DNA of 64,000 nt, taken from contig CAMMDQ010000003.1 of NCBI GenBank assembly GCA_946495675.1, forward strand, positions 453 to 64,452, in the 5' to 3' direction. Under the pieces are notes generated by a model. That model saw nothing but the letters and a program-made list of their open reading frames with translations, ran no database searches and was not told the DNA's origin. The position numbers were made by a program, and so were the translations under genes. Origin of the DNA: an uncultured Bacillota bacterium. GTDB taxonomy: Bacteria > Bacillota > Clostridia > Christensenellales > UBA1242. Within the stretch, counting starts at the first letter, position 1. Each line of letters begins with the position of its first letter. This document shows positions 27,842-58,738 of the stretch, one piece after another.

Positions 27842-27918
27842 CGCGGGATAGAGCAGCTCGGAAGCTCGTCGGGCTCATAACCCGAAGGTCGTTGGTTCAA
27901 ATCCAACTCCCGCAACCA
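27842..27918 (+). tRNA. initiator tRNA-fMet (anticodon CAT), CCA encoded
   Basis: The cloverleaf folds by hand as 7/4/5/5-bp stems. C1xA72 mismatch (CGCGGGA...TCCCGCA-A-CCA), three consecutive G-C pairs closing the anticodon stem (TCGGG/CCCGA), and a CTCATAA loop. Confidence 0.9.
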
Positions 27919-28059
27919 GTATAAACAAAGGGATGTAGCGATTTTACCGCCTTCAAAAATTGTGTTTTGACACCAATTTTGACACCAGAAAGGAGGTATA
28001 AAATTAGGTAATAGTATTGTTATTTTCCCTTAAAGACCAATAAAATGTTGGTCTTTTTT
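27874..28059 (+). repeat. attL: 186-bp direct repeat (45 nt of tRNA 3' half plus a 141-bp trailer with two TTGACACCA motifs and a terminator hairpin)
   Basis: Base-for-base identical to 41657..41842 when aligned by eye. Confidence 0.9.
28032..28059 (+). terminator. intrinsic terminator (within attL repeat)
   Basis: aaagaccaa-taaaatg-ttggtcttt stem followed by a T-run. It also abuts the stop codon of the minus-strand 232-aa gene. Confidence 0.65.
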
Positions 28060-28756
28060 ATTTAACCTTTTTCTTAAGTTTTTCATATTCTGTCTGAAGC
28101 TGCCAAACTATATTTAAAAGTTGAGCCTTTGTCTTCTCTTCAAAATATGAAAAATCGTAATGTTGTTTAGGATCATATGCCGGGGGAATATCTTCCTCAT
28201 TTATAGACTCTTTCTTCTCTTCAGAATCTTCTTCAAACAATTTCTTTTTCTGTTTTTGTTGAGCTTTATAATTTTTAACATATTCTCGAATTGACAAAAC
28301 AGACATATCAGGTCTGAGAACATTATTTTTTATATCAACTCTCAACTGATCAGTATTTACTGTTAAAAGCTCAAAAAGTTTTGACTTTGAAAAACCGAAA
28401 AATTCTTCAAGTATTACAGGCTTGTCAGTTTCTTGTTTAACAAATTTTTCATAACAACTACAAAGCCTACTAACTGCTGTTTCATCTAATCCCAACCCTT
28501 GCATAATATTTTCAAAAAACACATATTCATTTTTCTTAGTAACAAATCGACTATAATATGTAAGATGGTAATTTTTGAACAATTCTCGAACTTTATACAC
28601 ATAAAAACAAAGCTCAGCAAAAGCATTTTGACCTTTTGCAAAAATCTTATTTATTTTCTTCAGATATTCATTTAAAAGTTTAATTCCTTCAGAGCAATCA
28701 TGATCATAAGGTTTTAAATCAAAATCATACTCTTCAATCATTTTAAAATTTTCCAT
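28058..28756 (-). CDS. prophage cargo protein, function unknown (232 aa)
   Basis: GGAGG RBS. Acidic/lysine-rich C-terminal third. No motif recognised. Confidence 0.6.
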   Translation of the reverse strand: MENFKMIEEYDFDLKPYDHDCSEGIKLLNEYLKKINKIFAKGQNAFAELCFYVYKVRELFKNYHLTYYSRFVTKKNEYVFFENIMQGLGLDETAVSRLCSCYEKFVKQETDKPVILEEFFGFSKSKLFELLTVNTDQLRVDIKNNVLRPDMSVLSIREYVKNYKAQQKQKKKLFEEDSEEKKESINEEDIPPAYDPKQHYDFSYFEEKTKAQLLNIVWQLQTEYEKLKKKVK

Positions 28757-29138
28757 TTTTACCTCCGCTTAACTCTTTGATTTGCTGATTTAATTGGTCG
28801 CAAACATCAATCCATTTGACAAATTTTTGTGGATAGCAATGCTCCTCATTATTCATTATTTTAATTTTGGCTTTTAACTCAACTTTCACTTTTTCAAGTT
28901 CCTGAATTGCAAGTTGTATTTGATTTTGTTTTAACTTATTAGAACGTTGTATTAGTAGAGTTTTCAATTTTTCTTTTGCATTTAACAATGCTTTTAATTC
29001 TACAATCACTTTGTCTTTTTCTTCAAGTTGAGTTTCTACAACACTTTTATCAAATATATATTGCAAACAAAGTTTAATAACACGATCTTTTGTTAGCGTT
29101 TGTAAATACTCTCTTGTTGCTTTTTCTTTGTCAGTCAT
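28743..29138 (-). CDS. prophage coiled-coil protein, function unknown
   Basis: Heptad-rich sequence. The second ATG (29138) has a GGAGG 5 nt upstream. The track ORF starts at 29150. Confidence 0.55.
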   Translation of the reverse strand: MTDKEKATREYLQTLTKDRVIKLCLQYIFDKSVVETQLEEKDKVIVELKALLNAKEKLKTLLIQRSNKLKQNQIQLAIQELEKVKVELKAKIKIMNNEEHCYPQKFVKWIDVCDQLNQQIKELSGGKNGKF

Positions 29139-29153
29139 CTTTTCCTCCATAAT

Positions 29154-29387
29154 TTATTTTCTTTTTGAAAGAAGCCGTCTTTTCTTTCTTAAATATTCAG
29201 GTGTTGCTTTATACAACAAAGCATACTCATAACAACCGTGTTCTTGCATTACAGAACTTAACAATTTCTCATTGCCAGTCTTTGAGGCTATTTTTAATTT
29301 GACCTAGCTTTTATGATAAGCCTTTTCAAGTTGTTCTTTAGAAGAACTCAAAGCAAGCTTTTTATGTTTCTTTTTAAAAAATGCCAT
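29154..29387 (-). pseudogene. 77-codon reading frame interrupted by one in-frame TAG (29304..29306)
   Basis: ATG at 29387 with a GGAGGA RBS. Translation reads MAFFKKKHKKLALSSSKEQLEKAYHKS-TAG-VKLKIASKTGNEKLLSSVMQEHGCYEYALLYKATPEYLRKKRRLLSKRK-TAA. Both halves are in the same frame. Confidence 0.35.
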
Positions 29388-29422
29388 GTTTTTATTCCTC
29401 CATAAAAATTTTATAAAAAGTA

Positions 29423-29451
29423 TTGACTTTTTGTTTTAAATACACTATAAT
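29423..29451 (+). promoter_or_regulatory. near-consensus sigma-A promoter on the strand opposite to the phage genes
   Basis: TTGACT, 17 nt spacer, TATAAT. Confidence 0.5.
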
Positions 29452-29457
29452 GATAAT

Positions 29458-29543
29458 GTTCTTATTGAACACACATTAATGTGTCAGGCTTATAACTTTT
29501 GTCTATAAGCACGAGGGACGATTTGTGCGCCCTCATTTTTTTT
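29458..29543 (+). ncRNA. candidate ~85-nt small RNA (three hairpins, terminator-like end)
   Basis: Downstream of the promoter lie a palindrome ACACATTAATGTGT (29471..29484), a GCTTATA/TATAAGC hairpin (29488..29510) and a GAGGG/CCCTC stem plus T8 (29513..29543). It ends at the stop codon of the convergent 135-aa gene. Confidence 0.35.
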
Positions 29544-29949
29544 ATTTATGAAACTTATTAAACATTTTTTTGTTTCTATCTTTTTGTTTCGATTTAACAA
29601 AAATTGTGTTTCTAATTTCTTCAACTTTTCTACGAGGAATATCCATGTTTTTGTGATTCTCTCTAAATTTTTCGTTTACAACAATAGGCTTGCCTTCGTC
29701 ATCTTCAATTTCTAAAAAGTGTTTATAATAAGTCTTTTGATTAGTTTTAGGATTTTTATAACCCTTTAATTCAGTCCTATTTGAACCTTTCTTTGAAGAT
29801 AGGGGAACAACAGCAAGCTCATTTCTGACATTATTATCAACAACAACCACTGGCCGAGTTTTCTTGGAGCCAGTTTTTTGTTTGCCCAAATAATTGTCTT
29901 TAGTAGTCAGAGTTCTTCCCCAAGGAATATATTTATTTTTGTGTTTCAA
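29542..29949 (-). CDS. basic 135-aa protein with a PemK/MazF-like signature
   Basis: KTRPVVVVDNNVRNELAVVPLSSKKG resembles the RPxxVx...VVxPxTS strand pair of PemK/MazF SH3-like barrels. Weak assignment made by eye. Confidence 0.3.
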   Translation of the reverse strand: MKHKNKYIPWGRTLTTKDNYLGKQKTGSKKTRPVVVVDNNVRNELAVVPLSSKKGSNRTELKGYKNPKTNQKTYYKHFLEIEDDEGKPIVVNEKFRENHKNMDIPRRKVEEIRNTIFVKSKQKDRNKKMFNKFHK

Positions 29950-29960
29950 AATAACTCCCT

Positions 29961-30986
29961 TTAATCAAGCATAACAGCTTGAATATTATTTTTAAAAATA
30001 TTGTTCAAATCAATATTAATAGGAATTAAACCCTTATCAAGATCTTTTTTAAGAGCATTATCTACTTTGATTTGAAGAACATTATAATCAGAAATATATG
30101 GTTGACCTTTTGCATTATCTATGTAAATATTTTTATCAATAGCATCAATAGGGTCATATTTAAAATTCAACGGTTTTTCAAAATCTGCTCCAATAAGTTT
30201 TTTTACAACGTCAGGAACTTTCAAATTAGAAGAGTAATAGAACCGTTTTTTAAATTTTTCAGTGGAACCTAAAGCTTTCTCAACATATTTTTTTACATAA
30301 GAATTGCAACGTTCGCGACTGCAAATTCTAGAAACAGTTGTGAAACCATAAGCGAAAGAAGTTGCATTATAAATAGGCTCTCCGTCTGTCTCTTTAAGTT
30401 CATGCAAACGTTTTGTCTTTTCAAAATATTCTTTAGAACAATACCCCAGATCTTCTAAAATGCCATATTTATTTTTCTTCTTTGCCCAATGACAACAAAC
30501 CTTTCCAGAATTCACAAGTCCCATTTGTTTTGCAGAAAGACCAGTTATTAACATATGCAAATGAAAACAACCGTCTTGATGCCTTTCGGGAAAAGTCATA
30601 TAAGCAAAAGAGGGGAATTGCTTTTTTAAATTATTAACATATTTCACATAGCAATCAAACACTGCAGACTCGTCAGTTCTATCAATCTTCTGTCTATCAA
30701 AAGTTATTGTGCAAAACCAATCAAAGTCGTTCATATTTAAAAGCATATTCATTAAAATAACTGTTCGATTTAGACTGGCCTCTTTTGATGCTAACACCAT
30801 ATTCTTTTTATAATACCGAATTTCTCCAGTATCTATATTTCTTTGAACAATTTCTCCAGAACTTAAAGTGTAAGGTTCCCACTTTTTTATAATTTTTCTA
30901 TTCGGCTGAAAGTAAAAAGACATTATTGTCTCATTTTTATAAATTCTTTCTTTCGAATATAAATTATAACTTAAATTTCCTCCCAT
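29961..30986 (-). CDS. rolling-circle replication initiator (HUH endonuclease, phiX174 protein-A-like motifs)
   Basis: HUH motif in GCFHLHMLITG and a paired-tyrosine motif SYVKKYVEKAL (compare uYuxKYuxK of phiX A-type Reps). Confidence 0.7.
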   Translation of the reverse strand: MGGNLSYNLYSKERIYKNETIMSFYFQPNRKIIKKWEPYTLSSGEIVQRNIDTGEIRYYKKNMVLASKEASLNRTVILMNMLLNMNDFDWFCTITFDRQKIDRTDESAVFDCYVKYVNNLKKQFPSFAYMTFPERHQDGCFHLHMLITGLSAKQMGLVNSGKVCCHWAKKKNKYGILEDLGYCSKEYFEKTKRLHELKETDGEPIYNATSFAYGFTTVSRICSRERCNSYVKKYVEKALGSTEKFKKRFYYSSNLKVPDVVKKLIGADFEKPLNFKYDPIDAIDKNIYIDNAKGQPYISDYNVLQIKVDNALKKDLDKGLIPINIDLNNIFKNNIQAVMLD

Positions 30987-31028
30987 GAATTAAAACTCCT
31001 TTTAAGTTATAATTTTTCTAATTAAACT

Positions 31029-31640
31029 TTATTTCATGCCTTGTCTTTTATTACATTTTAAAACCAAAAAATAACAATGATATTTTCGTGCGTGATTTTG
31101 ATTTTTTTGATAGCCAATTCTATTTTTAGCAAGTAATATAAACAAATCACGAACTGCAAAATTTAATTCTCTGGCCACCGAATAAATATAAGGCAAGATT
31201 AAATGTTGTTTTCTTCCAATAATAAAATCTTGAAACTTAAATATAAGAAGTCCACCATGTTTTAATACTCTCTGCAGAGAGATTAAACTATCTTTATAAA
31301 ATGTTTTAAGTTCTTCCAAGGAACTAAAACTACCATATCTTTGAGCCATTTTACATTTAGAATTTCCACTAACTATAAAAGGTGGGTCAAAAATAACTGA
31401 TTTAATACTTGATGCATCAAAAGGCAAATCTCTAACATCTAACTTTAATACTGATTCTAACTGTGGGTTAATATCACTTTTTAATACTGGATCTGAAACA
31501 ACACCATTTCTATAAAAGCCACCTATATTATAACAAGGGTCAAAATGTATTGGTTGTCCCTTATTATAAAGTTTTAATATGTTATTTATAATTTCTTGTT
31601 GGTCATAACTTATACTTTTTATTAAATCATTTGAAACCAT
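31029..31640 (-). CDS. DNA methyltransferase (N6-adenine or N4-cytosine class), orphan
   Basis: Catalytic DPPF motif (VIFDPPFIV) and an upstream FDPCYNIGGF AdoMet-like motif. No cognate nuclease gene is adjacent. Confidence 0.65.
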   Translation of the reverse strand: MVSNDLIKSISYDQQEIINNILKLYNKGQPIHFDPCYNIGGFYRNGVVSDPVLKSDINPQLESVLKLDVRDLPFDASSIKSVIFDPPFIVSGNSKCKMAQRYGSFSSLEELKTFYKDSLISLQRVLKHGGLLIFKFQDFIIGRKQHLILPYIYSVARELNFAVRDLFILLAKNRIGYQKNQNHARKYHCYFLVLKCNKRQGMK

Positions 31641-31920
31641 TTCTTATTTCCTTAAATTTTTATTTTCCGTTGAGTGTTACTATTGTCTAGTAAGCACTCA
31701 ATCGCGAAAACCGGGCAAAGCCTCGGTTTTTCGCGAATTTACTTTGTCAAAAGCAAAGTTTTTGAAAGCAAGTTCTTCGAAGAAAAAGCAACCAAAACAG
31801 ATTTTTCTGTATCTGATGCATTTAAATTCATCTCTTTGTTTATCATTATTCCTCGTTATGTGATATTTATTTGGGGCAATCATTAAGGGTTGCGACCCTT
31901 AATAATCCCTCTTTTCAATA
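31641..31920 (-). other. hairpin-rich non-coding intergenic region: candidate ssDNA replication origin, packaging signal or operon terminator
   Basis: 11-bp stem with one bulge at 31672..31699, a ~15-bp interrupted stem at 31702..31736 flanked by T/A runs, and an 8-bp stem with tetraloop TTAAGGGT-TGCG-ACCCTTAA at 31883..31902. Confidence 0.5.
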
Positions 31921-32313
31921 TCACTCTTCCTCACTTTCTTCAAGATCTTGTGGAGGCGACATTGGCTTAATAATCTCAGGAAAGTGAACGGAAGGTTTAT
32001 CTGTTTTCTTCTTAACAACTTCTGCTTTTTCTTTCTCAACATTTTGTAAAGCTTTTATCTTTTGCCAAAGCGACCAGTGGAATATTTTCCAAATAAAACC
32101 ATGAGGCATTGTATCAATAGCCTCTTGCAAAGCTAAGTTTCTTTTTTCACGTCGATACAAAGGACCATCAAAAAGTTTTACATATTTCATAAGATTATCT
32201 TCAGTAAATTTTAGCATTTTAGACGACACTTTATGTGTGCCTAAATTTTCTTGAACTTTTAATGTTTCATCAGATATAAAATCAGTTAAATCTTTGTAAT
32301 CTTTAATTTCCAT
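31921..32313 (-). CDS. phage protein, function unknown (130 aa)
   Basis: Start ATG overlaps the TGA of the upstream ATPase gene by one base (translational coupling). Acidic C-terminus. Confidence 0.55.
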   Translation of the reverse strand: MEIKDYKDLTDFISDETLKVQENLGTHKVSSKMLKFTEDNLMKYVKLFDGPLYRREKRNLALQEAIDTMPHGFIWKIFHWSLWQKIKALQNVEKEKAEVVKKKTDKPSVHFPEIIKPMSPPQDLEESEEE

Positions 32314-33170
32314 CAAACAATAGCTCCTAAATTTTTCAAAATTTGTTTATCATATTCTGCATTTTTATAATAACCACGAGGTGCAATAAAATAATGCTTA
32401 TTGTTAAATTCGACATAGCTCTCAAGCGTAAATTGATAGCCTTCTTCAGTATAATAATCAAAACCTTGATTATATTTGCCATCGTAAAAAGCAGGACGAC
32501 AACCTTTACTATCATAATAATTAAAAATCGGTAAATCTGTTTCAAACTCAACAACAATGCCAAGATCCTTATTCTCTTTTCTTTCTCGAGCTAACATATA
32601 GTTTTCAGCTGTATCACAAGAATAAAATTTCCTAGCAGTCCATTTAAGTTTAACAACACGACCGTAAATGTCTTCTGTAACAGAAAGATTGTCAACAACA
32701 ATAAACTGTTCAGCAATACTACGTATATTAAGGTCTATATTTCCTAATCTTTGACAAGCCATATAAACGTTATAATCGTTATGCCTATGTAATTGAAACC
32801 AACGATAGACCTCTTCTCTTATATACTTTGACATTCGGCTATCATAATATTTTTGAGCTTCATCCAAAAATATAGTTGAGTAGGGTGGTATATTCGCAGT
32901 TTCAAAATAAGGATTTGGCAAAGCAATCTGAAAGCCATCAATATAATACGTTTGTAAACGACTATTGATTTGGACTTTATAATCAGCATAGCATAGATGC
33001 CTTTGAGGCGGCAATTCTAAGTTAGAAAAACCGCCTTTAGACAACTTGTTAATTTCATGTTTAAGATTTAAATAATCTTCAAATCCATGTTCAATCATTG
33101 TTTGAGCAACAAAATGAGTCAATTTACAAGTTTTACCGGCACCTGGTATGCCGCAAATTATAGTAATCAA
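32313..33170 (-). CDS. Zot/pI-like P-loop NTPase (filamentous-phage morphogenesis ATPase-like)
   Basis: MITIICGIPGAGKT Walker A at the extreme N-terminus and IFLDEAQKYY Walker B, as in Zot-domain proteins. TTG start overlaps the upstream stop. No C-terminal TM segment is seen. Confidence 0.6.
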   Translation of the reverse strand: MITIICGIPGAGKTCKLTHFVAQTMIEHGFEDYLNLKHEINKLSKGGFSNLELPPQRHLCYADYKVQINSRLQTYYIDGFQIALPNPYFETANIPPYSTIFLDEAQKYYDSRMSKYIREEVYRWFQLHRHNDYNVYMACQRLGNIDLNIRSIAEQFIVVDNLSVTEDIYGRVVKLKWTARKFYSCDTAENYMLARERKENKDLGIVVEFETDLPIFNYYDSKGCRPAFYDGKYNQGFDYYTEEGYQFTLESYVEFNNKHYFIAPRGYYKNAEYDKQILKNLGAIV

Positions 33171-34621
33171 ATTTCTGCACCAACTCCAACAAATCGAAGA
33201 ATAACATCCTCTGAAAGAGAATCTATGTTTTTAAAGCTTACATTATAATTTTTATTTTCAATTTCAATAATTCTTAATGATTCCAAATTTGCAAAAACTG
33301 CAAAATTAATTTCTGTATAGGTTGAAGGGATAATGATTTTTATTAAATTTTCATTTGTAAATGTTGTAGGATTAAAAATAGTTAAAGTATAATCTTCTCC
33401 TTCTATATATTCAGTTTTCACTTTCTCTATTATGTAAGAATATTGAGAACCGACCATTACATAACCCATACAGCGAACAGAAAACGTTGAATAGTCCATT
33501 AATTCCTTTTCAGAATTATTGAACGAAACATACCACCGATTAGACCCCCATTCTTCCTGCAAATCACTAGCATTATCATTTTGACCTTCAACCCTAGCAT
33601 AAATTGTTTCTTCTTTACTATATGAGCAAGGCAATTTAATCACAGAGTCAGTCCCTTGATAGCTACTAATGTCTTCATTTAAAAATACATAATCATTAAA
33701 ATTAGTAACTGGAAGTTGATTTAAAGACTTTTTAAAAATATTTTTTGTATATTTTGACCATATTTCATCAGACAAATATTCTTCATACAGCGAATCTGGT
33801 ACATACATCTCAAAAGCATCATATGTTGCTTCTCCATTAGAAAAATCTAATCCTTGTATTACTGCAGTCTCATTGTTTACTATTAATTTCGTAATTTGAT
33901 AAAAATTTGATAATTCAAAAGACGTAATATGGTTTGGCAAAATGACAGTGTCAACATTTGTGCCATCAAAAGCATACCGAGATATGTAATCAATATTATA
34001 ATCGTTACCCTCAAAAAATTTCATTTCTCCAACAAGAATTTTAAAAGGATATATTGCCTCGCCTTTTTCAATCGCTACGTCAGAAAACGAAACTATGTCA
34101 TAATATTCAGTTGTTTCATCATTAAAAGTCACTTTTAAATATGAAGAATAATCAAAAGAATCGTTAAAAACATTTTCCATATCACTTGACGAATTTATAA
34201 TAATCTCTTCATTACTTGGAATAAATTCAAATGAATAACCAGTTGGTATGTTTTCAACTACTGTAGAATCCCCAGTATAAGCAACTACTGAATTTTTGAA
34301 AAATTTAAAATCAGTTATCTCAACCTTCTCTTGTGCATTTTGACTTTCAAGTTCTTTAATTTTCAACTCCAGTTCTGCGATTTTATTTTCCAGGAATATG
34401 TTTTCGCTTTCTAACTCATTTAAAAGCTCTTTATATATAGCAAGTTCATTTTTTAAATCTTGTAGTTCTTTCTTATCATCCAATGAATAACTAATTTGCT
34501 CTCCATTAAACCAGTCTTTAATCATTGCTGGATGCTGTGCTGTAAACACAAAACCTGCAATACTTGTTGGAATTGTTACAGCACCAGTCAAACCTAAAAC
34601 TACTTTTCCAAATGTTTTCAT
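33167..34621 (-). CDS. membrane-anchored coiled-coil / LRR-like protein (candidate minor coat or adsorption protein)
   Basis: N-terminal TM (VVLGLTGAVTIPTSIAGFVF), a coiled coil (ELQDLKNEL...ELESQNAQEK), then repeats such as ISRYAFDGTNVDTVILPNHITSF. Confidence 0.5.
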   Translation of the reverse strand: MKTFGKVVLGLTGAVTIPTSIAGFVFTAQHPAMIKDWFNGEQISYSLDDKKELQDLKNELAIYKELLNELESENIFLENKIAELELKIKELESQNAQEKVEITDFKFFKNSVVAYTGDSTVVENIPTGYSFEFIPSNEEIIINSSSDMENVFNDSFDYSSYLKVTFNDETTEYYDIVSFSDVAIEKGEAIYPFKILVGEMKFFEGNDYNIDYISRYAFDGTNVDTVILPNHITSFELSNFYQITKLIVNNETAVIQGLDFSNGEATYDAFEMYVPDSLYEEYLSDEIWSKYTKNIFKKSLNQLPVTNFNDYVFLNEDISSYQGTDSVIKLPCSYSKEETIYARVEGQNDNASDLQEEWGSNRWYVSFNNSEKELMDYSTFSVRCMGYVMVGSQYSYIIEKVKTEYIEGEDYTLTIFNPTTFTNENLIKIIIPSTYTEINFAVFANLESLRIIEIENKNYNVSFKNIDSLSEDVILRFVGVGAEI

Positions 34622-34631
34622 AATATGCTCC

Positions 34632-35792: not shown

Positions 35793-35802
35793 TAAACCAC
35801 CT

Positions 35803-36507
35803 TCAGACAGCAATATTTAAAAGAGGCAATTTATACACTGATGCTTCATTATTAAACCATTCAAAACAAGGAAGACCTTTATATGAATAATTATCAAAAG
35901 GTTTCTCAGAGATGTCAAAATATTGTAATGCAAATTTTTTCCCAGTCCCGCTATGACCGGCGATTTTTTCACGATCAAGAATATCTTTTCTAAAAGTCAT
36001 TGAAGAAATAATATTATCTATTTGCACATCAGAATCAATTTCAAAATATCTTGAAAGCTCTAAATTTGTTTTATGTTCATAATTAGAAGAAGCAGACATA
36101 TATTGATTTAATACAGTTTTTAACAAAGCAGATATAGTTGATAAAGTATCAGTTTCAATATATATTTGATTTTCACTATTATTTAACAACTTATAAGTAG
36201 TACCTTCTAACAAAAGACCTTCTTTATTAAACAATTTATTAACATTCGAATAATCACTTGTTAAAAGATATGGGACACGAGACGCATACAAATAATTTGA
36301 AGGATCGTTTCCCCATAATGGGTATTGACTATAAAATGAATCTTCAACTTGACCACGATCACCATAAGTGCAGAAAGCATATCTTAAAATATAATCATAA
36401 TCACTAGTTTCTTCAAAGCCATAAACTACAGCACAAGGTTCAATTTCAATCAATTCGCCTTCACTTGTATAAGAAGCTAAATAAGTTGAAAATTTCATAT
36501 AAACCAA
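35803..36507 (-). CDS. phage protein, function unknown (234 aa)
   Basis: ORF within a co-directional, tightly packed module. Start is uncertain (TTG 36507 or ATG 36498). Confidence 0.5.
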   Translation of the reverse strand: MVYMKFSTYLASYTSEGELIEIEPCAVVYGFEETSDYDYILRYAFCTYGDRGQVEDSFYSQYPLWGNDPSNYLYASRVPYLLTSDYSNVNKLFNKEGLLLEGTTYKLLNNSENQIYIETDTLSTISALLKTVLNQYMSASSNYEHKTNLELSRYFEIDSDVQIDNIISSMTFRKDILDREKIAGHSGTGKKFALQYFDISEKPFDNYSYKGLPCFEWFNNEASVYKLPLLNIAV

Positions 36508-36537
36508 CTTTGAAAAACCTAAATCATTACCAAAACG

Positions 36538-36930
36538 TTAAATAGTTAAAAATGAATCGGCACCAATATTTGTTGTAGTAAACGCATTTAATAGATGAAG
36601 CATAGAAGGCGAAATAGAAAAAACAAAACCAGCCGTTGAGCCACTTAATTCTCCATTTTCACGAATATATTCAAGATTATCGATAGTAGAATTATTTGCA
36701 GTTAAAACATAGGTCTCGCCTACTATATCATCATTATCAACAAAGCCGCCAGTCCCATCGCCTTTGTCTGGGAAAAATGTTTGTCCTGACCCATCAATTA
36801 TGATAGTCTCATCGTTATTATTGTTTGTCTGATTACTATTTTGTGTATTGATGTAATAACCTACAAAAAATGATAAAGCACATACTAAAACAGCAATCAA
36901 AACTAAATAAAATATATTTTTACTTTTCAT
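36538..36930 (-). CDS. phage membrane-anchored protein (130 aa)
   Basis: GGAGGA RBS, an N-terminal TM helix and an Asn-rich linker. Confidence 0.55.
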   Translation of the reverse strand: MKSKNIFYLVLIAVLVCALSFFVGYYINTQNSNQTNNNNDETIIIDGSGQTFFPDKGDGTGGFVDNDDIVGETYVLTANNSTIDNLEYIRENGELSGSTAGFVFSISPSMLHLLNAFTTTNIGADSFLTI

Positions 36931-36942
36931 AAATCCTCCAAT

Positions 36943-37095
36943 TTAAAACAACCCAACAATTCCAACCCAGTCAAGAAAACTCCCAAGCCAAGAAAGACCT
37001 TGACCTAGCAAACGAAAAATTAATCCCAAAAGAGCTAAAATAGAAGGGCCAAAAATTACAACAGCTATAATAATCAAAGCAAGTTTCCAAAACAT
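36943..37095 (-). CDS. 50-aa very hydrophobic protein (candidate filamentous-phage coat or assembly protein); not in the ORF track
   Basis: Hand translation gives MFWKLALIIIAVVIFGPSILALLGLIFRLLGQGLSWLGSFLDWVGIVGLF. AAGGA RBS. It fills the gap between flanking genes. Confidence 0.5.
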   Translation of the reverse strand: MFWKLALIIIAVVIFGPSILALLGLIFRLLGQGLSWLGSFLDWVGIVGLF

Positions 37096-37136
37096 AATAA
37101 CATTCCTTTTTCGACTTTTAATAAAAAATAAAGGGA

Positions 37137-37162
37137 AAAGGGGAAGGACCCCAAGCCCCTTT
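37137..37162 (-). terminator. intrinsic terminator-like hairpin after the 75-aa gene
   Basis: On the minus strand, AAGGGG...CCCCTT stem followed by a T-rich run (ttccctttatttttt). Confidence 0.45.
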
Positions 37163-37172
37163 ATTTATTGAA

Positions 37173-37400
37173 CTAATTAACAAAATGCAACATGGCCGTT
37201 GTCTGTTCAACAGTTTCGGCACCCTCTTGCAATTTATCTGGAGTGAACCATGTTTGCAATGTTTCAACAAAGGTTGTTCCTTCACAACCACCATAAATCA
37301 ACACTGCTAGACAGAAAAATGCTGCAAGAACAAGAATAGACAAAACAACATAACCGACAACTTTTAACCATGTAGGTGAGCTATAATTATATCTAGCCAT
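37173..37400 (-). CDS. 75-aa single-pass membrane protein (candidate major coat protein)
   Basis: GGGAG RBS. One central TM (VVGYVVLSILVLAAFFCLAVLIYGG). Followed by a terminator-like hairpin, as for highly expressed coat genes. Confidence 0.5.
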   Translation of the reverse strand: MARYNYSSPTWLKVVGYVVLSILVLAAFFCLAVLIYGGCEGTTFVETLQTWFTPDKLQEGAETVEQTTAMLHFVN

Positions 37401-37415
37401 TTTTTATCTCCCTAT

Positions 37416-37745
37416 TTATTTTTTTTCTACCAAAACACATGACTCAGGTTTAGGTGTAATATTTTGACCGTACTGAGCAAGAATATATTTAACTTTTGCC
37501 CAATCGCCAAATTTTGCTTTATCATATGTTTCCTTATCAACTTTATAATTCAAACGGGTTCCATTCAAAATACCATCGATTTTATTAAAATCTTCTTCAT
37601 CACAAGAAACAACGTCCAAATAATATTCTTCAGGTTTAGCATCCCATTTTCGAGTTCCATCAAAACTCTCTCCAGCCTCTCTAGCCTTAACAAATTTCTT
37701 TGCAATAATCATTCCAATTTCCCGCATAGGTTTATTTTCTAACAT
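37416..37745 (-). CDS. 109-aa soluble protein (position compatible with an ssDNA-binding protein)
   Basis: GAGGAA RBS. The call rests on gene order only. No motif recognised. Confidence 0.4.
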   Translation of the reverse strand: MLENKPMREIGMIIAKKFVKAREAGESFDGTRKWDAKPEEYYLDVVSCDEEDFNKIDGILNGTRLNYKVDKETYDKAKFGDWAKVKYILAQYGQNITPKPESCVLVEKK

Positions 37746-37919
37746 TTTTTATTTCCTCACTTTTATTTTTTAAATTTTATAATTTCATCATTAAATAATT
37801 GAACAAAAATCAACTTAAACTATTGATTATGTGCGAGGACGCATTGCCTCGACTTACAGTGTTATTAACTTATAGAAGAAAAGACACCAGACGATTTTTT
37901 TGCGGTGCCGCAATTTTTA

Positions 37920-38135
37920 TTAATATAAAGGTTTATTTTTATTATTTTGTGGCATTCCACTTAGACCTTTAACAAAAGCATCATATACTCGAGTATCTGT
38001 TTTACCACTTGCAATACTATTTCGAACTTTCTTCTCTTGGCCTAATCTAAAAGCAATTTGTTCTGCAGTTGTATATTTATTTCTCTTTTTCTTTCTATTT
38101 CTATTTTGGCCATAATAATTTCTAAAATTTGCCAT
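37920..38135 (-). CDS. 71-aa highly basic protein
   Basis: AAGGAAG RBS. Sequence MANFRNYYGQNRNRKKKRNKYTTAEQIAF... suggests nucleic-acid binding from charge alone. Confidence 0.5.
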   Translation of the reverse strand: MANFRNYYGQNRNRKKKRNKYTTAEQIAFRLGQEKKVRNSIASGKTDTRVYDAFVKGLSGMPQNNKNKPLY

Positions 38136-38347
38136 GCTTCTTCCTTTTAATTAAATTTTTGTAAACTAGTTCTCGACTTTTACTCTAGTAATAATGGACT
38201 GTGGCCTAGGGACTTCAACCCTAGAAAGAACAATGACAGCATATATCAGTTCAGGGTAGGAGGGATGTGAAAAACGTTTTTCAAAGGATCAAAGTTCAAA
38301 CTATGCTTAACCCCGCGTTTGTCTGAGAATTTCGCCACCACAGCCAT
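38136..38347 (-). other. second structured non-coding region of the element
   Basis: Long-range inverted repeat ATGGACTGTGG (about 38192) / CCACAGCCAT (38338..38347), an internal CTAGGG-N7-CCCTAG hairpin and a GAAAAACGTTTTTC palindrome. Confidence 0.4.
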
Positions 38348-38473
38348 TTAATAAGGCAATGAAGTATCTGCTTTTAAGAGCCTTTCTTTTAAACGTGCAT
38401 TCTCTTTAAGTAATTTGTCATTCTCTCTACGAAGAGAATCACATTCTAATATCAATTCTTTAACAGACCCCAT
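38348..38473 (-). CDS. 41-aa coiled-coil micro-ORF
   Basis: AGGAG RBS 7 nt upstream. MGSVKELILECDSLRRENDKLLKENARLKERLLKADTSLPY. Hand-translated and absent from the track. Confidence 0.35.
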   Translation of the reverse strand: MGSVKELILECDSLRRENDKLLKENARLKERLLKADTSLPY

Positions 38474-38474
38474 A

Positions 38475-38597
38475 TCATACTCCTATTACTTGGTATTCAA
38501 TGCCAGCAACTTTGAAAGCAGTTACTTTTCTAAGCATAGACGATAAGTCAGGGCATTCATAACAAGCATTTTTTGTTTTAACCAAATATTTTTTCAT
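38475..38597 (-). CDS. 40-aa micro-ORF
   Basis: GGAGG RBS 9 nt upstream. MKKYLVKTKNACYECPDLSSMLRKVTAFKVAGIEYQVIGV. Confidence 0.35.
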   Translation of the reverse strand: MKKYLVKTKNACYECPDLSSMLRKVTAFKVAGIEYQVIGV

Positions 38598-38700
38598 GTC
38601 TCTTTTCCTCCATTCTTTCTTTAAATTTAATCTCTTGCATAAATCGACTATAACTAACTTGTCGTCTTCCGATGTAAAATTTTGCCATGTGTAAAATCAT
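38578..38700 (-). CDS. 40-aa basic micro-ORF (Cro/excisionase-like position)
   Basis: GGAGG RBS 7 nt upstream. MILHMAKFYIGRRQVSYSRFMQEIKFKERMEEKRHEKIFG. It is the first gene divergent from the repressor array. Confidence 0.35.
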   Translation of the reverse strand: MILHMAKFYIGRRQVSYSRFMQEIKFKERMEEKRHEKIFG

Positions 38701-38713
38701 TTTCAACCTCCCT

Positions 38714-38770
38714 ATTATAGTTTGTTTTTCAAACTTTATACACGCATTATAGTTTATTTATTAAACTTTG
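38714..38770. promoter_or_regulatory. two operator-like palindromes in the divergent switch region
   Basis: ATTATAGTTTG-TTTTT-CAAACTTTA (38714..38738) and ATTATAGTTTA-TTTAT-TAAACTTTG (38746..38770), 32 bp centre to centre. Confidence 0.55.
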
Positions 38771-38836
38771 TCAACTATTTTGGTTTATTTTTTTAACTTT
38801 TTTAAAAAATATATATAATCTTATTGGGAGGTGCAT

Positions 38837-39187
38837 ATGAATCTAGGTTTAAGACTCAAAAACTTAAGAAAAAATGAACATATTACACAGGAAGAATTAA
38901 CAAAAAAAATTGGAATAAATTTATCAACATATAAACAATACGAAACTAATAGAACAGAACCTGACATTGAAACACTAAAAAAAATAGCCGATTACTTTGA
39001 TATAAGCCTTGATTATCTTTGTGATCGACCAAGACCAAACTTTATTGATAAAAGTGCTTGGTCAAAAAGCAAAAGAGAATTATTAAACATGATTACAGAA
39101 CTTGATGACTATGGAAGCGAAAAAACAAAGAGTTTTATTGTCGGCTATACACAAGCACAAAAAGAAAAACCAAAAATTATCAACTAA
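38837..39187 (+). CDS. Xre-family HTH repressor, paralog 1
   Basis: HTH_3 pattern LRLKNLRKNEHITQEELTKKIGINLSTYKQYETNRTEPDIETLKKIADYFDISLDYL. GGGAGG RBS before the ATG at 38837. Confidence 0.85.
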   Translation: MNLGLRLKNLRKNEHITQEELTKKIGINLSTYKQYETNRTEPDIETLKKIADYFDISLDYLCDRPRPNFIDKSAWSKSKRELLNMITELDDYGSEKTKSFIVGYTQAQKEKPKIIN

Positions 39188-39201
39188 AAGGAAGAAAAAA
39201 A

Positions 39202-39540
39202 ATGAGATTAAAAACAATTAGACAAACAACAGGGAAATCACAATTACAAATAGCAAAAGAATTAAATATTTCACAACAAAATATATGTAGATATGAAAAT
39301 AATCAAATTGAACCAGACATACAAACTTTAATTAAACTTGCAGATTATTTCCATGTAACAATCGACTACCTTGTCGAACATGAAGTTCCTTATCTGATTG
39401 ATAAGAGTGCTTGGCCAGAAAGCAAAAGAGAACTGTTAAACATGATTGCAGAACTTGACGACTTTGAAAGCGAAAAAATAAAAGGCATCATTGTCGGCTA
39501 TACACAAGCACAAAAAGAAAAACCAAAAATTATTAACTAA
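39202..39540 (+). CDS. Xre-family HTH repressor, paralog 2
   Basis: Same architecture. The C-terminal 45 aa are nearly identical to paralog 1 (DKSAW..SKRELLNMI.ELDD..SEK...IVGYTQAQKEKPKIIN). Confidence 0.85.
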   Translation: MRLKTIRQTTGKSQLQIAKELNISQQNICRYENNQIEPDIQTLIKLADYFHVTIDYLVEHEVPYLIDKSAWPESKRELLNMIAELDDFESEKIKGIIVGYTQAQKEKPKIIN

Positions 39541-39552
39541 AAGAAGGGAAAA

Positions 39553-40329
39553 ATGAAATTAAAAGAACTAAGAACAAAATTTAAAATTTCACAAACAGAA
39601 CTTGCAAAACAAGTTAACATTTCTCAAAAAAGCATATCAAATTACGAAAATGGTATTTCAGATCCAGACATAAGAACATTAAAACAATTAGCTGATTATT
39701 TTCATATAACAGTAGATGATTTAATAGACCACAAATTTTCTTACTTTATTAATAAAAATGTTTTAACAGAAAACAAAAGTATAAAAATAAAACTTAAAGA
39801 ATTAAGATTAAAAAACAATCTAACACAAGAAGATGTTGCAAAAAAAATCAATAAATCAGCAGTGGCCTATGGCTACTATGAATCAGGAAGAAATGAACCA
39901 GACATACAAACTTTAATAAAGCTTGCAAATTTTTATAATATAACAATAGATTACCTTGTTGGAAATGAAATTCCTTATTTTAGTAATAAAAATGATTACA
40001 CGAAAAATAGGAATATAAAACTTAAAGAACTAAGACTTAAACATGAAAAAACACAACAAGAAATAGCCAAAGATTTAAATTTAACTCAAAACACATATTC
40101 AAACTATGAAAAAGGAAAAACAACTCCGGACATACAAACTTTAATTAAAATTGCAGATTATTTTCACGTAACAGTGGACTATTTAATAGGACATGAGGTT
40201 CCTTATCTAATTGATAAAAGCTATTATATTGCTGAACAACAAATATTACTCGACGAAATCGCAACTTTAGACAAAGAAAAATGTAAACTAACAAAAGCAT
40301 ATATAGATGGACTTAATACAAAAAAATAA
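39553..40329 (+). CDS. triple-HTH Xre-family protein (three HTH_3 modules in one chain)
   Basis: Three repeats of LKELR...TQ.E.AK......S.YE.G...PDI.TL..LA..Y.ITVDYL at about residues 1-60, 80-140 and 155-215. Confidence 0.85.
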   Translation: MKLKELRTKFKISQTELAKQVNISQKSISNYENGISDPDIRTLKQLADYFHITVDDLIDHKFSYFINKNVLTENKSIKIKLKELRLKNNLTQEDVAKKINKSAVAYGYYESGRNEPDIQTLIKLANFYNITIDYLVGNEIPYFSNKNDYTKNRNIKLKELRLKHEKTQQEIAKDLNLTQNTYSNYEKGKTTPDIQTLIKIADYFHVTVDYLIGHEVPYLIDKSYYIAEQQILLDEIATLDKEKCKLTKAYIDGLNTKK

Positions 40330-40556
40330 AAAAAATACAAAGGAGAAAAAAAAACAAATGATAACTTTATATGAATATATAAAAACACAATGACGAAATC
40401 AAAAAGCATACAGAATGTATCGAAACAGCAATAGACACATATTTTAAAACCAAAAACCCTTATAGCTATAATAATGAAAAATATGAAAATGCTGAAAAAG
40501 GGGAAATAATTGACTTTAAAACAAAAAATAACAATATTATTCCTAAAAACGAAGAT

Positions 40557-41555
40557 ATGATTTATAACATTTATAAAGGAATAAAAATAACCAAACGAAA
40601 AGACAATCGTTGGCAAGCTAGATTTTCAATTAATGGCGAAAGAAAATATATTTATGGCAATACACAAAAAGAATGTTTTGAAAACTTAAAACAAACTTTT
40701 GAAATCAAACAAGTAAAAATTGAAAAAACTGTAAGCTTTTATGAATACTGGAACTGGTGGTATAAAAATCACAAAGAACCTTTTTACAAAGAAGGGACTT
40801 TAAAAAATTACAGAAGTGTATTCAACAATCAAATAAAACCAAATTTTCCAGATAAAAACATAAAACAAATTACAGCTCTTGAAATCAATAATTTTTTAAA
40901 CAAGATGCCAAACACGCGAATGAAAGAATATACTTATCAATTTTTAAAAGAATGTTTCAAACAAGCATATAAAGATAAAAAAGTAAAATTTGATATTTCT
41001 GATGATATAAAGAAGTATCATCATAAACGAAAAGAAGGCACAGCACTTTCAGTCGAACAAAGAAAAACAATTATTGAAAAAGCAGAAAATACTATCTATG
41101 ACATTTTTATCTTTTATCTATTTACTGGATGCAGACCAAAAGAAGCTCTGATCATAAAGGCAAATGATTTTGAAGATGAGCTGCTGCACATAAGAGGAAC
41201 AAAAACAGCAGGTTCTGACAGATGGATTCCAGTTTTTGAACCTATAAAAAAGATATATGAAAAATATAAAAATTTAAAAACTGAAACTCTTTTCGGAATA
41301 TCTGATACAACACTAAAAAGAAGACTTGCAGATTTCAAAAAAATATGTGGATTTGATTTCAAAACAAAAGATTTAAGAACAACCTTTGCAACAATGTGCG
41401 CTGAAAAAGGTATTGCACCAAGAATAATTGCAAAATGGTTGGGACACACAACAACTCAAACAACTAATAAATATTACATAAAAGTTCTAGACAACTTTGA
41501 AAAAGAGCAGATAAAACTACTTGACACCACTTTTGACACCACAAAAAAGGTATAA
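40557..41555 (+). CDS. int: tyrosine recombinase / phage integrase
   Basis: N-terminal arm/core-binding pattern (RKDNRWQARFSINGERKYIYG) and catalytic-domain motifs LFTGCRPKEAL, IRGTKTAGSDRWIPV, KDLRTTFAT and LGHTTTQTTNKYY. Confidence 0.9.
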   Translation: MIYNIYKGIKITKRKDNRWQARFSINGERKYIYGNTQKECFENLKQTFEIKQVKIEKTVSFYEYWNWWYKNHKEPFYKEGTLKNYRSVFNNQIKPNFPDKNIKQITALEINNFLNKMPNTRMKEYTYQFLKECFKQAYKDKKVKFDISDDIKKYHHKRKEGTALSVEQRKTIIEKAENTIYDIFIFYLFTGCRPKEALIIKANDFEDELLHIRGTKTAGSDRWIPVFEPIKKIYEKYKNLKTETLFGISDTTLKRRLADFKKICGFDFKTKDLRTTFATMCAEKGIAPRIIAKWLGHTTTQTTNKYYIKVLDNFEKEQIKLLDTTFDTTKKV

Positions 41556-41656
41556 ATTTAGGTAAATAAAAAAGTGCAACACAATATTTTGTGTTACACT
41601 TTAAACAAAATACCATATATATTGTAAAAACACAATAGAGCAAATGCTTTGCATTT

Positions 41657-41842
41657 CTCATAACCCGAAGGTCGTTGGTTCAAATCCAACTCCCGCAACC
41701 AGTATAAACAAAGGGATGTAGCGATTTTACCGCCTTCAAAAATTGTGTTTTGACACCAATTTTGACACCAGAAAGGAGGTATAAAATTAGGTAATAGTAT
41801 TGTTATTTTCCCTTAAAGACCAATAAAATGTTGGTCTTTTTT
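41657..41842 (+). repeat. attR: 186-bp direct repeat (partial tRNA-fMet 3' half plus trailer)
   Basis: Identical to 27874..28059. Weaker similarity continues for about 18 bp further on both sides. Confidence 0.9.
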
Positions 41843-58267: not shown

Positions 58268-58440
58268 TGTTCTTTTCCTCCTTTTTTAGAATATTGTGTT
58301 ATAAAATAAAATCTCTACGCCTCAAGGAAAAAAGCGTAGAGATTATTGCTTAAAACTCACTTATAACTTTTTTCCTCGGCAAGCACGCTTATGCGTTTAT
58401 GTTTTCACACTTGCTGTCTTTGGATTTAGATTTTATTTCA
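58268..58440 (-). promoter_or_regulatory. rplJ leader (L10-leader-type attenuator) with its own consensus promoter just upstream (TTGACA 58475..58470, TATAAT 58452..58447)
   Basis: 173-nt leader containing the ATCTCTACGC...GCGTAGAGAT hairpin (58311..58343) followed by a T-rich tract on the minus strand. The position matches the L10 leader known in Firmicutes. Confidence 0.5.
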
Positions 58441-58738
58441 TTGTCTATTATAGCTATTATAATTGGTTTTGTCAACTGTTTTTTTTGAAATTAATAAAAT
58501 AGTTTAAATTTGATTTTAAATGATGCTAAAGTGGCGATAACTAGCATGGATAACAAAACTTCTGCAATCAAATTTTTGCAAAAAGTTGTTCTATAAATTT
58601 AATTTGTATAAATCTTACATTTTTGTTTCATTGTAAGTTTGGAGGGATGAAATGTTATTTTTAATTGTTGTAACACTATAAATTTATTTTGTCAATAGGT
58701 GCTTGAAAAGGGAAGAAAAAAGGACTAAATTTTAGTCC

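Follow-up and report, generated by a model that had tools for sequence, protein, structure and literature searches.

A probable temperate inovirus-type prophage in the initiator tRNA gene of an uncultured gut Clostridia bacterium

Introduction

Roux et al. (2019; PMC6813254) detect inoviruses through a pI-like ATPase accompanied by short proteins with a single transmembrane domain, place four candidate inovirus families on monoderm or wall-less hosts, and record tyrosine recombinases, toxin–antitoxin systems and DNA methylases among the annotated inovirus functions. Gut Enterocloster species secrete inoviruses, and the host of Propionibacterium phage B5 is among the Gram-positive inovirus hosts listed in the same study (Burckhardt et al.; PMC10061712). 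Filamentous phages that infect monoderm gut anaerobes are known largely as sequences, and only a few have been studied in culture. Here we describe an element at positions 27,842–41,842 of a 64,000-nucleotide stretch of DNA, hereafter the window, from an uncultured Bacillota bacterium (GenBank assembly GCA_946495675.1, contig CAMMDQ010000003.1, positions 453–64,452 of the forward strand); all coordinates given below are those of the window. We read the element, with reasonable confidence, as a temperate prophage of the inovirus type (Tubulavirales) in an uncultured bacterium of the gut Clostridia.

A preliminary description of this DNA had proposed an inovirus-like prophage, and in its essentials that proposal stands: the element encodes a Zot/pI ATPase, an HUH replication initiator (Rep) with two tyrosines and small transmembrane (TM) proteins, and it contains no recognisable capsid or tail family. 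Inoviruses of this kind have already been described in monoderm gut bacteria, and the cargo is ordinary. Sequence comparison places the element in a large family whose members sit at tRNA genes of gut Clostridia. What is new here is a conserved hairpin together with a near-invariant block that resembles the phiX174 origin.

Results

The assembly ATPase and its partner

The assignment turns first on two adjoining genes.

31921..32316, minus strand: soluble 131-aa partner of the ATPase, with conserved TMPHGFIWKIFH..LWQKIK and an acidic C-terminus
32313..33170, minus strand: Zot/pI-type assembly ATPase of 285 aa, with Walker A GIPGAGKT and Walker B IFLDEAQ and without a TM helix

The preliminary description had made its case depend on the second of these products being a Zot/pI ATPase, and the identification is upheld by Pfam, by PHROGs and by comparison with M13 pI. 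The protein scores 33.3 bits against PF05707 (Zot; cut-off 20.3) and 9.1e-16 against phrog_197, annotated as 'Zot-like'. A family profile of 28 homologues matches M13 pI over the ATPase domain with an hhalign E of 3.7e-5 and matches PDB 2r2a, which we take to be the N-domain of Neisseria Zot, with 4.6e-8. The Zot of bajarodino virus 12 is the best match among GenBank phages (profile E 1e-35). Homologues fall into at least 132 clusters at 48–88% identity, nearly all from Logan/ENA gut assemblies; PF05707 is found in all but one of the 120 homologues listed, and both Walker motifs are invariant in the 28 that were aligned. The pI/Zot-like morphogenesis ATPase by which inoviruses in the wide sense are recognised (PMC6813254) is thus present. 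The 131-aa gene adjoins the Zot gene, always following it, in every relative with a Zot identity of at least 50%, and its product has no family match in Pfam, PHROGs or NCBIfam.

Rep and a candidate replication origin

Downstream of these genes on the minus strand lie a structured intergenic region and the gene for the Rep.

31702..31736, minus strand: GC-rich hairpin immediately 5' of the conserved block, its structure kept and its sequence variable
31661..31693, minus strand: block TTACTAGACAATAGTAACACTCAACGGAAAATA, nearly invariant, proposed site of Rep recognition and nicking (candidate viral-strand origin)
31641..31920, minus strand: 280-nt intergenic region containing three strong hairpins, of which the third lies at 31879–31906
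29961..30986, minus strand: rolling-circle replication (RCR) initiator Rep of 341 aa, HUH type with two catalytic tyrosines (PF23343)

The Rep scores 35.5 bits against PF23343 (REP_ORF2-G2P; cut-off 27.8) and 5.9e-11 against phrog_3419, and it carries the motifs FCTITF, HLH and YVKKYVEK, in agreement with its earlier designation as an HUH/Y-x3-Y protein. The corresponding patterns FxTxTF, HxH and YVxKYVxK are invariant in the Reps of 11 relatives and can be aligned with the motifs of phiX174 A; beyond the motifs, profile comparison with phiX174 A is not significant (hhalign E 0.019, probability 2.4%). Searches with tblastn against the Rep genes of circular faecal inovirus genomes gave E-values down to 1e-20.

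As single-stranded DNA (ssDNA), the intergenic region folds with −50.5 kcal/mol (z = −7.55 against shuffles), and the three hairpins bear out its description as hairpin-rich. Among seven relatives, the GC-rich hairpin has five different stem sequences, each of which folds with a z of −4.2 to −7.9, so that its position and stability are retained across relatives although the stem sequences differ completely. The neighbouring 33-nt block behaves in the opposite way. Its consensus in the seven relatives is TTACT(T/A/C)GACAATA(G/A)TAAC(A/G)CT(C/T)A(A/T)CGGAAAATA, and it is kept among Rep-bearing relatives down to a Rep identity of 55% (locus L002). The core of the family block, ACT(T/A/C)GACAATA(G/A)TAACACT, corresponds to ACTTGATATTAATAACACT in phiX174, and the family consensus is identical at 16 of 19 positions to the phiX174 origin core ACTTG^ATATTAATAACACT. 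We verified the phiX174 viral-strand origin, CAACTTG^ATATTAATAACAC, in NC_001422, where the nick is annotated at 4306.

The initiator is recognised directly, and the nick site is predicted from the conserved block. This block is probably where Rep recognises and nicks the coding strand, a candidate origin sequence in which cleavage would fall after ACT(T/A)G within TTACT(T/A)GACAATAGTAACACT. With the nick on the coding strand, it is that strand which would be packaged, as in Ff and phiX. By sequence, the block doubles as a weak promoter; the two roles are not mutually exclusive.

The integration site and the lysogeny module

The element is a low-GC island of 13,783 bp, counted from the 3' end of an initiator tRNA-Met gene on one side to the end of a second 45-nt tRNA half, with an ABC transporter gene on the other side.

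27842..27918, plus strand: tRNA-Met(CAT), initiator, the integration target, intact at the left junction (ARAGORN; Rfam RF00005, 62.6 bits)
27874..28059, plus strand: attL, the left repeat copy, whose 45-nt core at 27874–27918 is the tRNA 3' half and whose remaining 141 nt contain a duplicate of the integrase 3' end as well as a terminator hairpin at 28032–28056
41657..41842, plus strand: attR, the right repeat copy, with a partial tRNA 3' half at 41657–41701
40557..41555, plus strand: tyrosine integrase (PF00589, PF14659; phrog_1 at 4e-52)
38831..40329, plus strand: three tandem Cro/C1-type helix-turn-helix (HTH) repressor genes of 118, 112 and 258 aa, with five HTH domains (PF01381)
38714..38777, minus strand: two tandem 32-nt repeats (repeat D14) with a promoter, candidate operator/promoter of the switch

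The GC content of the element is 29.4%, compared with 37.4% and 36.1% in the 10-kb flanks. Its genes are as tightly packed as had been noted, with a coding density of 86% and four junctions that overlap by 4–20 nt. ARAGORN and Rfam find a single tRNA gene in the window, tRNA-Met(CAT) at 27842–27918 on the plus strand, and its sequence shows the marks of a bacterial initiator: the C1xA72 mismatch, A11:T24 and the GGG/CCC anticodon stem. Together with the direct repeat, these features substantiate the proposed integration into the initiator tRNA gene. The repeat is not confined to the tRNA half; it runs without a mismatch over 186 nt, 27874–28059 being identical to 41657–41842, and starts in the anticodon loop. 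The arrangement is that of a temperate element integrating into a tRNA gene, in which the integrase gene adjoins an att repeat duplicating the 3' part of a tRNA that is itself left intact. Relative L005 repeats precisely the 45-nt tRNA 3' half at its att sites, and L029 repeats this half and a few flanking nucleotides, 53 nt in total. The integrase is 94–95% identical in L004, L005 and L029.

The initiator tRNA is a site that has been used repeatedly and has accumulated debris. Each att copy of the window contains, at 27967–28011 and 41750–41794, a 45-nt, 89%-identical copy of the integrase 3' end (41521–41565), which appears to have been left behind by an earlier integration or by a tandem copy. 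The right junction of L005 (1168–1527 of that locus) consists of three to four tandem 105-nt units, each ending in the last 11 nt of the tRNA and a terminator hairpin, and phage-like remnants lie outside the L005 att site.

The HTH genes and the leftward operon face each other across the tandem 32-nt repeats. A perfect TTGACA-17-TATAAT at 38774–38746 on the minus strand is the only 12/12 promoter match in the element. The three HTH genes, which form repeat family D1, match PF01381 with E-values of 5.6e-17, 1.4e-13 and 4.3e-56. Their number at the switch varies, with one gene in L001, L029 and L068, two in L095–L097 and three here. The single repressor of L006 shares 76% identity with the 118-aa protein, and that of L004 and L005 shares 74–78% with the 112-aa protein. 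The stacked repressors may represent stacked immunities against related phages.

Candidate virion genes

Every open reading frame (ORF) that the preliminary description had placed on the minus strand is there, in the same place and order, with sizes of 42/40/41, 71, 109, 75, 50, 130, 234, 393, 484, 285, 131, 203 and 341 aa; the 393-aa ORF has 386 aa when counted from its first ATG. The genes between the switch and the ATPase are as follows.

38348..38706, minus strand: three conserved micro-ORFs of 42, 40 and 41 aa, the first genes of the leftward operon
37920..38135, minus strand: 71-aa basic protein, net charge +13, with a homologue in L011 only among the loci compared
37416..37745, minus strand: 109-aa all-beta, OB-fold-like protein, candidate ssDNA-binding protein (AF2 pLDDT 78.8)
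37173..37400, minus strand: 75-aa single-pass membrane protein with a basic N-terminus, a TM helix and an acidic C-terminal part
37126..37166, minus strand: intrinsic terminator, a hairpin and U run directly after the 75-aa gene
36943..37095, minus strand: 50-aa protein, very hydrophobic, a candidate for a minor coat or assembly role
35803..36930, minus strand: 375-aa N-anchored structural gene in its ancestral form, here divided into ORFs of 130 and 234 aa
34632..35813, minus strand: 393-aa N-anchored protein with a Pro/Glu linker and BspA-type leucine-rich repeats (LRR), candidate adsorption protein
33167..34621, minus strand: 484-aa protein anchored by an N-terminal TM helix, with a coiled coil and BspA-type LRR, candidate adsorption protein

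Two short proteins with a single hydrophobic segment each by Kyte–Doolittle analysis, of 75 and 50 aa, are thus encoded near the ATPase, within the 30–90 aa range expected of inovirus single-TM proteins; on this sequence evidence both are candidates for a structural role. The 75-aa protein is the best candidate for the major coat protein. Its family comprises 24 clusters of 49–84 aa, plus one 769-aa match, with a common layout of a short basic N-terminus, one TM helix, a conserved (S/T)F(V/I)E..(L)..WF stretch and a tail of acidic character. The nearly invariant cysteine of the family is C30, inside the TM helix. We considered whether the YGGC sequence marks a lipoprotein and rejected this, as the Cys39 position is Cys in about half of the homologues and otherwise F, V, I or Q. 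Some homologues have a possible signal-peptidase site (ASA/VSA).

The terminator behind the 75-aa gene folds with −19.9 kcal/mol (z = −4.0); its counterpart at the same position in L029 is weaker, at −16.4 kcal/mol (z = −1.35). In Ff phages a terminator follows gene VIII. Counterparts of the 50-aa protein at the same position are a 52-aa ORF in L072 and a 26-aa hydrophobic ORF in L029, and the micro-ORFs are 71–100% identical in L001, L004, L005 and L029.

The preliminary description had listed a soluble 109-aa protein in the place of the ssDNA-binding gene. Its model has an OB-like topology, and SSB (SsbA/B), RPA, PriB and LEF-3 head the Foldseek lists, which supports the proposal weakly, the scores being low (E 0.02–0.3, TM-score 0.43–0.48).

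Among the large proteins, the 393-aa product scores 83.9 bits against PF13306 and has an N-terminal TM helix, and the 484-aa product falls marginally below the cut-off of the same family (27.6 bits; cut-off 27.7). The 484-aa protein is only 25–32% identical in phages whose Zot is 76–87% identical, and the 393-aa gene is swapped for unrelated genes in the L095 and L096 variants at the same site. The model of an intact 375-aa homologue is of low confidence (pLDDT 52.9; Foldseek TM-score ≤0.11), matched no capsid or tail protein, and is too poor to exclude anything by fold. Scans of 20 ORFs against Pfam, PHROGs and NCBIfam gave no match to any family of capsid, portal, terminase, tail or lysis proteins, in line with the preliminary description, which had named capsid or tail homology of the large ORFs as a ground for abandoning its reading. 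Two unannotated human-faecal records deposited as 'Bacteriophage sp.', MT836206.1 (11,915 nt) and MT836325.1 (11,083 nt), match the 393-aa LRR protein and not the Zot query; they may be small phages that share the adhesin-like module.

Relatives and circular forms

In GTDB contigs, searched as one genome per species, a relative of the ATPase occurs at 51 loci, mostly in metagenome-assembled genomes (MAGs) labelled as uncultured Clostridia, Christensenella/Christensenellaceae or Lachnospiraceae; Pumilibacter, the nearest cultured genus, has one at about 36% identity. The closest carriers identified, the MAGs CALVMU01 and CALVMV01, are uncultured. The element is also present in Logan runs such as ERR4968687 and ERR6747856, and the window corresponds to ENA contig NODE_76 of ERZ2916642. 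A scan of IMG/VR with the ATPase profile returned one relative at 53% identity and four distant ones, nothing closer, and the best ATPase identity in GenBank phages is 34%. The lineage is almost absent from both sets.

Two MAGs, L005 and L029, whose GyrB is 99% and 96% identical to that of the window, hold related but different prophages in the same tRNA. Relative to the window, the integrase is 94%, the Rep 85–89% and the Zot 76–85% identical; between the 75-aa gene and Zot, the genes either show no relationship or are just 25–35% identical. Other relatives have Flg_new or C-terminally anchored 443–483-aa proteins in this variable block. The conserved core consists of the genes for the 109-aa and 75-aa proteins, Zot, the 131-aa partner, Rep and the 232-aa protein described below. 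The variable block, placed where Ff phages have gIII and gVI, behaves like a receptor-binding module.

In one relative with a Zot 62% identical (L076), a plasmid-type Rep_1 (PF01446, 6072–7082) replaces the ORF2-G2P Rep, which points to exchange of the replication module within the family. A distant Zot relative on a Hydrogenothermaceae MAG contig (L054; WFXI01000199.1, 5,745 nt) has a 151-nt terminal overlap and is probably a complete circular small element.

The distant Dulem viruses, which have the same Zot and Rep types, are terminally redundant circles from filtered faecal nucleic acid amplified by the rolling-circle method (PMC11281440), and the bajarodino records were deposited as circular genomes from faeces. 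These circular distant relatives give indirect support to the identification of the element as an inovirus. The recurrent 11–13.8-kb contigs of the family probably end at the att repeats, which break assembly.

The state of this copy

An in-frame TAA at 36538–36540 on the minus strand cuts the 375-aa gene into the 130-aa and 234-aa ORFs. Homologues of the 234-aa product are 351–375 aa long and span the 130-aa ORF too, and one of them (P0142), 97% identical to the 234-aa half, has Glu (GAA) where the window has TAA. The two ORFs, taken for separate proteins in the preliminary description, are therefore two halves of one gene. Because the same gene is split in a second sample (L080), the split is inherited and is not an assembly error. 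An amber codon likewise interrupts a 77-aa ORF; in two other samples (L089 and L090), whose DNA is identical apart from this, the ORF is open. Both lesions are G-to-T changes on the coding strand. We considered stop-codon recoding and rejected it, since close relatives read GAA or GAG at exactly these codons and each kind of stop occurs only once.

The lesions bear on an alternative of the same ancestry, namely that the element is a defective or cryptic inovirus prophage that produces no infectious virions and persists as a chromosomal passenger or by dependence on a related helper. The TAA falls in a structural gene that is intact in relatives, the amber codon adds a second lesion, and the att region, with its remnants of earlier elements, indicates that decay occurs at this site. 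Against this, the integrase, the 109-aa and 75-aa proteins, Zot, the 131-aa partner, Rep and the 232-aa protein all agree with their relatives over essentially the whole length, the flanking repeats are perfect over 186 nt, and both halves of the split gene could be expressed, an ATG lying 40 nt past the stop. We regard a defective element as possible but on balance unlikely. The prophage may have been disabled recently, or both gene halves may still work; this copy may no longer give infectious particles by itself.

Accessory genes and flanks

The remaining genes of the element lie around and beyond Rep.

28058..28756, minus strand: 232-aa conserved protein, present wherever this Rep type is present
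28743..29150, minus strand: 135-aa coiled-coil-like accessory protein, with a homologue in L005 only among the loci compared
29154..29387, minus strand: 77-aa ORF with an amber codon, GAG to TAG at 29304–29306
29542..29949, minus strand: 135-aa very basic protein, net charge +20, with a sub-threshold PemK/MazF-like segment
31029..31640, minus strand: orphan DNA methyltransferase of 203 aa, accessory (phrog_24333 at 3.4e-50)

The 232-aa protein is 35–93% identical in 14 related loci and has sub-threshold family matches only. The basic 135-aa protein scores 20.8 bits against PF02452 (cut-off 23.1) and 1e-3 against phrog_1936, and it is kept in relatives, sometimes elsewhere in the element. A MazF toxin of a type II toxin–antitoxin system was considered and set aside: the score is below the cut-off, no antitoxin family is adjacent and PADLOC gave no match. 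The methyltransferase is called as an orphan by PADLOC (3.9e-11) and is 92% identical in L006, the sole other locus with it among those compared. A defence-system reading of the cargo was rejected, the individual readings being below threshold or absent. The cargo had been called unusual; this does not hold, as tyrosine recombinases, methylases and toxin–antitoxin genes are already listed for inoviruses (PMC6813254).

The left flank contains gyrA/gyrB and two membrane proteins, and the right flank the ABC transporter and GlnRS. A ribosomal protein L10 leader at 58297–58441 on the minus strand (RF00557, 72.4 bits) is an ordinary host feature, unrelated to the prophage.

Discussion

Several observations weigh against the identification of the element as an inovirus-type prophage and have to be set beside the evidence above. 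A membrane anchor is absent from both the ATPase and its 131-aa partner; we do not count this against an inovirus, because the pI-like Orf8 of B5 also lacks a TM helix. The coat candidate has a charge layout, basic at the N-terminus and acidic in the C-terminal part, that is opposite to that of Ff pVIII and B5 Orf5, and it matches no known coat protein in Pfam, PHROGs or GenBank phages. With Foldseek scores this weak, the predicted OB fold of the 109-aa protein is no more than a lead. This copy carries nonsense mutations at two places, one of which is in a structural gene. The window copy of the conserved block agrees with the phiX origin at just 15 of 19 positions, and a 15/19 match occurs in 35% of shuffled elements, a 16/19 match in 3%. 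Given these frequencies, we rejected the similarity as stand-alone evidence; it counts because it lies in an independently conserved block beside a phiX-A-type Rep. Finally, no terminal overlap indicative of a circular form was found in close-relative contigs of up to 16 kb, in no contig that encodes this exact integrase or 232-aa protein are the element ends joined, and the exact attP and empty-site attB patterns had no match in JGI metagenomes, in which the organism may be absent.

If the element is, as we believe, a temperate inovirus, its cycle could run as follows. The HTH repressors would hold the promoter at 38774–38746 closed. On release, the leftward operon would yield the micro-ORF products, the 109-aa OB-fold-like protein and the 75-aa protein in quantity, while the terminator at 37126–37166 would attenuate transcription into the adsorption and assembly genes, as after Ff gene VIII. 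Rep would nick the coding (window minus) strand within 31661–31693 and so allow rolling-circle synthesis of that strand, which the 109-aa protein would coat; the neighbouring hairpins would serve in complementary-strand priming, packaging or both. The soluble Zot ATPase and its constant 131-aa partner would power extrusion through the single membrane, and the DNA, as it is extruded, would be coated by the 75-aa protein and would take up the large, variable LRR proteins for receptor binding.

A different kind of particle, pleomorphic or vesicle-like, derived from membrane and not filamentous, made by an ssDNA virus or transfer agent with a Zot-type ATPase and an RCR Rep, would accommodate the N-terminal anchoring of all the TM-bearing candidate structural proteins, the reversed charge polarity of the coat candidate, the soluble ATPase, and structural proteins without detectable relatives among known inovirus coat proteins. 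We nevertheless judge it improbable. B5, which is classified as a filamentous phage, shares the TM-less pI-like ATPase and the gene order; we know of no Zot/pI ATPases other than those of filamentous phages; and inovirus structural proteins are in general too divergent to be matched by sequence.

Still less do we favour an integrative, RCR plasmid-like or mobilizable element that carries BspA-LRR adhesin genes as cargo and makes no virion. A tyrosine integrase and an RCR Rep are typical of integrative mobilizable elements too, BspA-LRR proteins (PF13306) are ordinary cell-surface proteins of gut Firmicutes, and the relative L076 has a plasmid-type Rep_1. However, Zot and its partner, the 109-aa and 75-aa proteins and the N-anchored variable module are kept together down to a Zot identity of 50–60%, which would be unexpected for cargo, and neither a relaxase nor a coupling protein was found in the Pfam and PHROG scans. 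A remnant of a tailed (Caudoviricetes) prophage, suggested by the tRNA-targeting integrase, by the Cro/C1 switch typical of tailed temperate phages and by weak PHROG matches of the ATPase to 'head morphogenesis/terminase' (E 7e-6 to 1e-3), is very unlikely, as these matches are confined to the P-loop region and far outscored by the Zot families, capsid, portal, terminase, tail and lysis families are missing from Pfam, PHROG and NCBIfam results, and the whole 13.8-kb unit recurs with the same content between att repeats in relatives.

Returning to the inovirus-type prophage, we put forward one extension of it tentatively, as a proposal that we doubt more than we expect: the gut-Clostridia inovirus clade may build a particle of reversed topology relative to Ff and B5, with a soluble Zot and 131-aa partner and swappable tip adhesins. 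In such a particle all the TM-bearing candidate virion proteins would be anchored by an uncleaved N-terminal helix, and the basic N-terminus of the coat protein would lie on the ssDNA with its acidic C-terminal part forming the outer surface. Zot and its dedicated partner would act in place of a membrane-spanning pI, and BspA-LRR or Flg_new tip modules would set host range on Gram-positive surfaces.

The family is widespread: over 130 clusters of its ATPase occur in gut data from humans and animals, and most derive from MAGs of uncultured Clostridia. It offers a testable origin sequence and a coat candidate of unusual polarity, and its members form a natural set of variants in which adhesin-like tip modules are exchanged at a single chromosomal site. 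This set could account for the evolution of host range and for the remodelling of surfaces in gut commensals. For annotation, the message is that these genes are those of a prophage and not host surface-protein genes, and that the 130-aa and 234-aa ORFs are one broken gene.

Comparison with known systems

Bajarodino virus 12 (PQ006185.1, deposited as Inoviridae), with a 9,828-nt circular genome from rodent faeces, shares the ATPase at 34% identity (tblastn 2e-29). Its Zot also lacks a TM helix and is followed by an overlapping partner ORF, and an integrase and a repressor are present. In contrast, its Rep, structural genes and partner ORF are not detectably related to those described here, its HTH and integrase proteins are 21–36% identical, and its genome is smaller and was recovered as free circular DNA.

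The Enterocloster/Hungatella inoviruses (PMC10061712) and the Dulem inoviruses (PMC11281440) are, like this element, gut Clostridia inoviruses found through pI/Zot. The Dulem genomes, from lemur faeces, encode the same type of Rep at about 28% identity and a Zot at 25%; unlike the present element they are circles of 4.1–8.5 kb. For both groups the sequence relation is distant, and the hosts belong to other families, Lachnospiraceae and others predicted by iPHoP.

Propionibacterium phage B5 is reportedly filamentous, on electron-microscopic evidence attributed to Chopin in 2002. Its GenBank record (NC_003460; Paulinoviridae, Bifilivirus) is that of an isolated filamentous phage of a Gram-positive host. 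B5 has the same order, in which small hydrophobic ORFs come first and are followed by the coat gene, a large structural protein, a P-loop ATPase of the pI-like kind and Rep, and its pI-like Orf8 is without a TM helix. It differs in that the ATPase relation is not significant (hhalign E 0.059, probability 0.9%), the genome is 5.8 kb with no integrase or switch annotated, the coat has the classical basic C-terminus, and the 485-aa protein is C-terminally anchored, whereas the anchors here are N-terminal. Membership of the Paulinoviridae by ATPase and coat sequence was considered and rejected on this ATPase score and coat layout.

With phiX174 gpA (NC_001422), the Rep shares the same three motifs, including YVxKYVxK. 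The virion types are unrelated, and the phiX origin lies inside gene A, whereas the candidate origin here is intergenic.

Unlike this element, Ff phages do not integrate, and M13 pI is an inner-membrane protein working with the outer-membrane channel pIV, neither the anchor nor pIV having a counterpart here. The Rep is placed by Pfam (PF23343) in the phiX A/ORF2-G2P type, a likely further difference from Ff. Nevertheless, the ATPase domain is homologous to that of M13 pI (NC_003287; E 3.7e-5), and candidate gV-like and coat genes, a terminator, candidate adsorption genes and pI are accompanied, as in Ff, by a hairpin-rich intergenic region and an HUH Rep. The Ff-type logic of the gene order, proposed in the preliminary description, is recovered in the gV / gVIII / terminator / gIII / gI order of M13.

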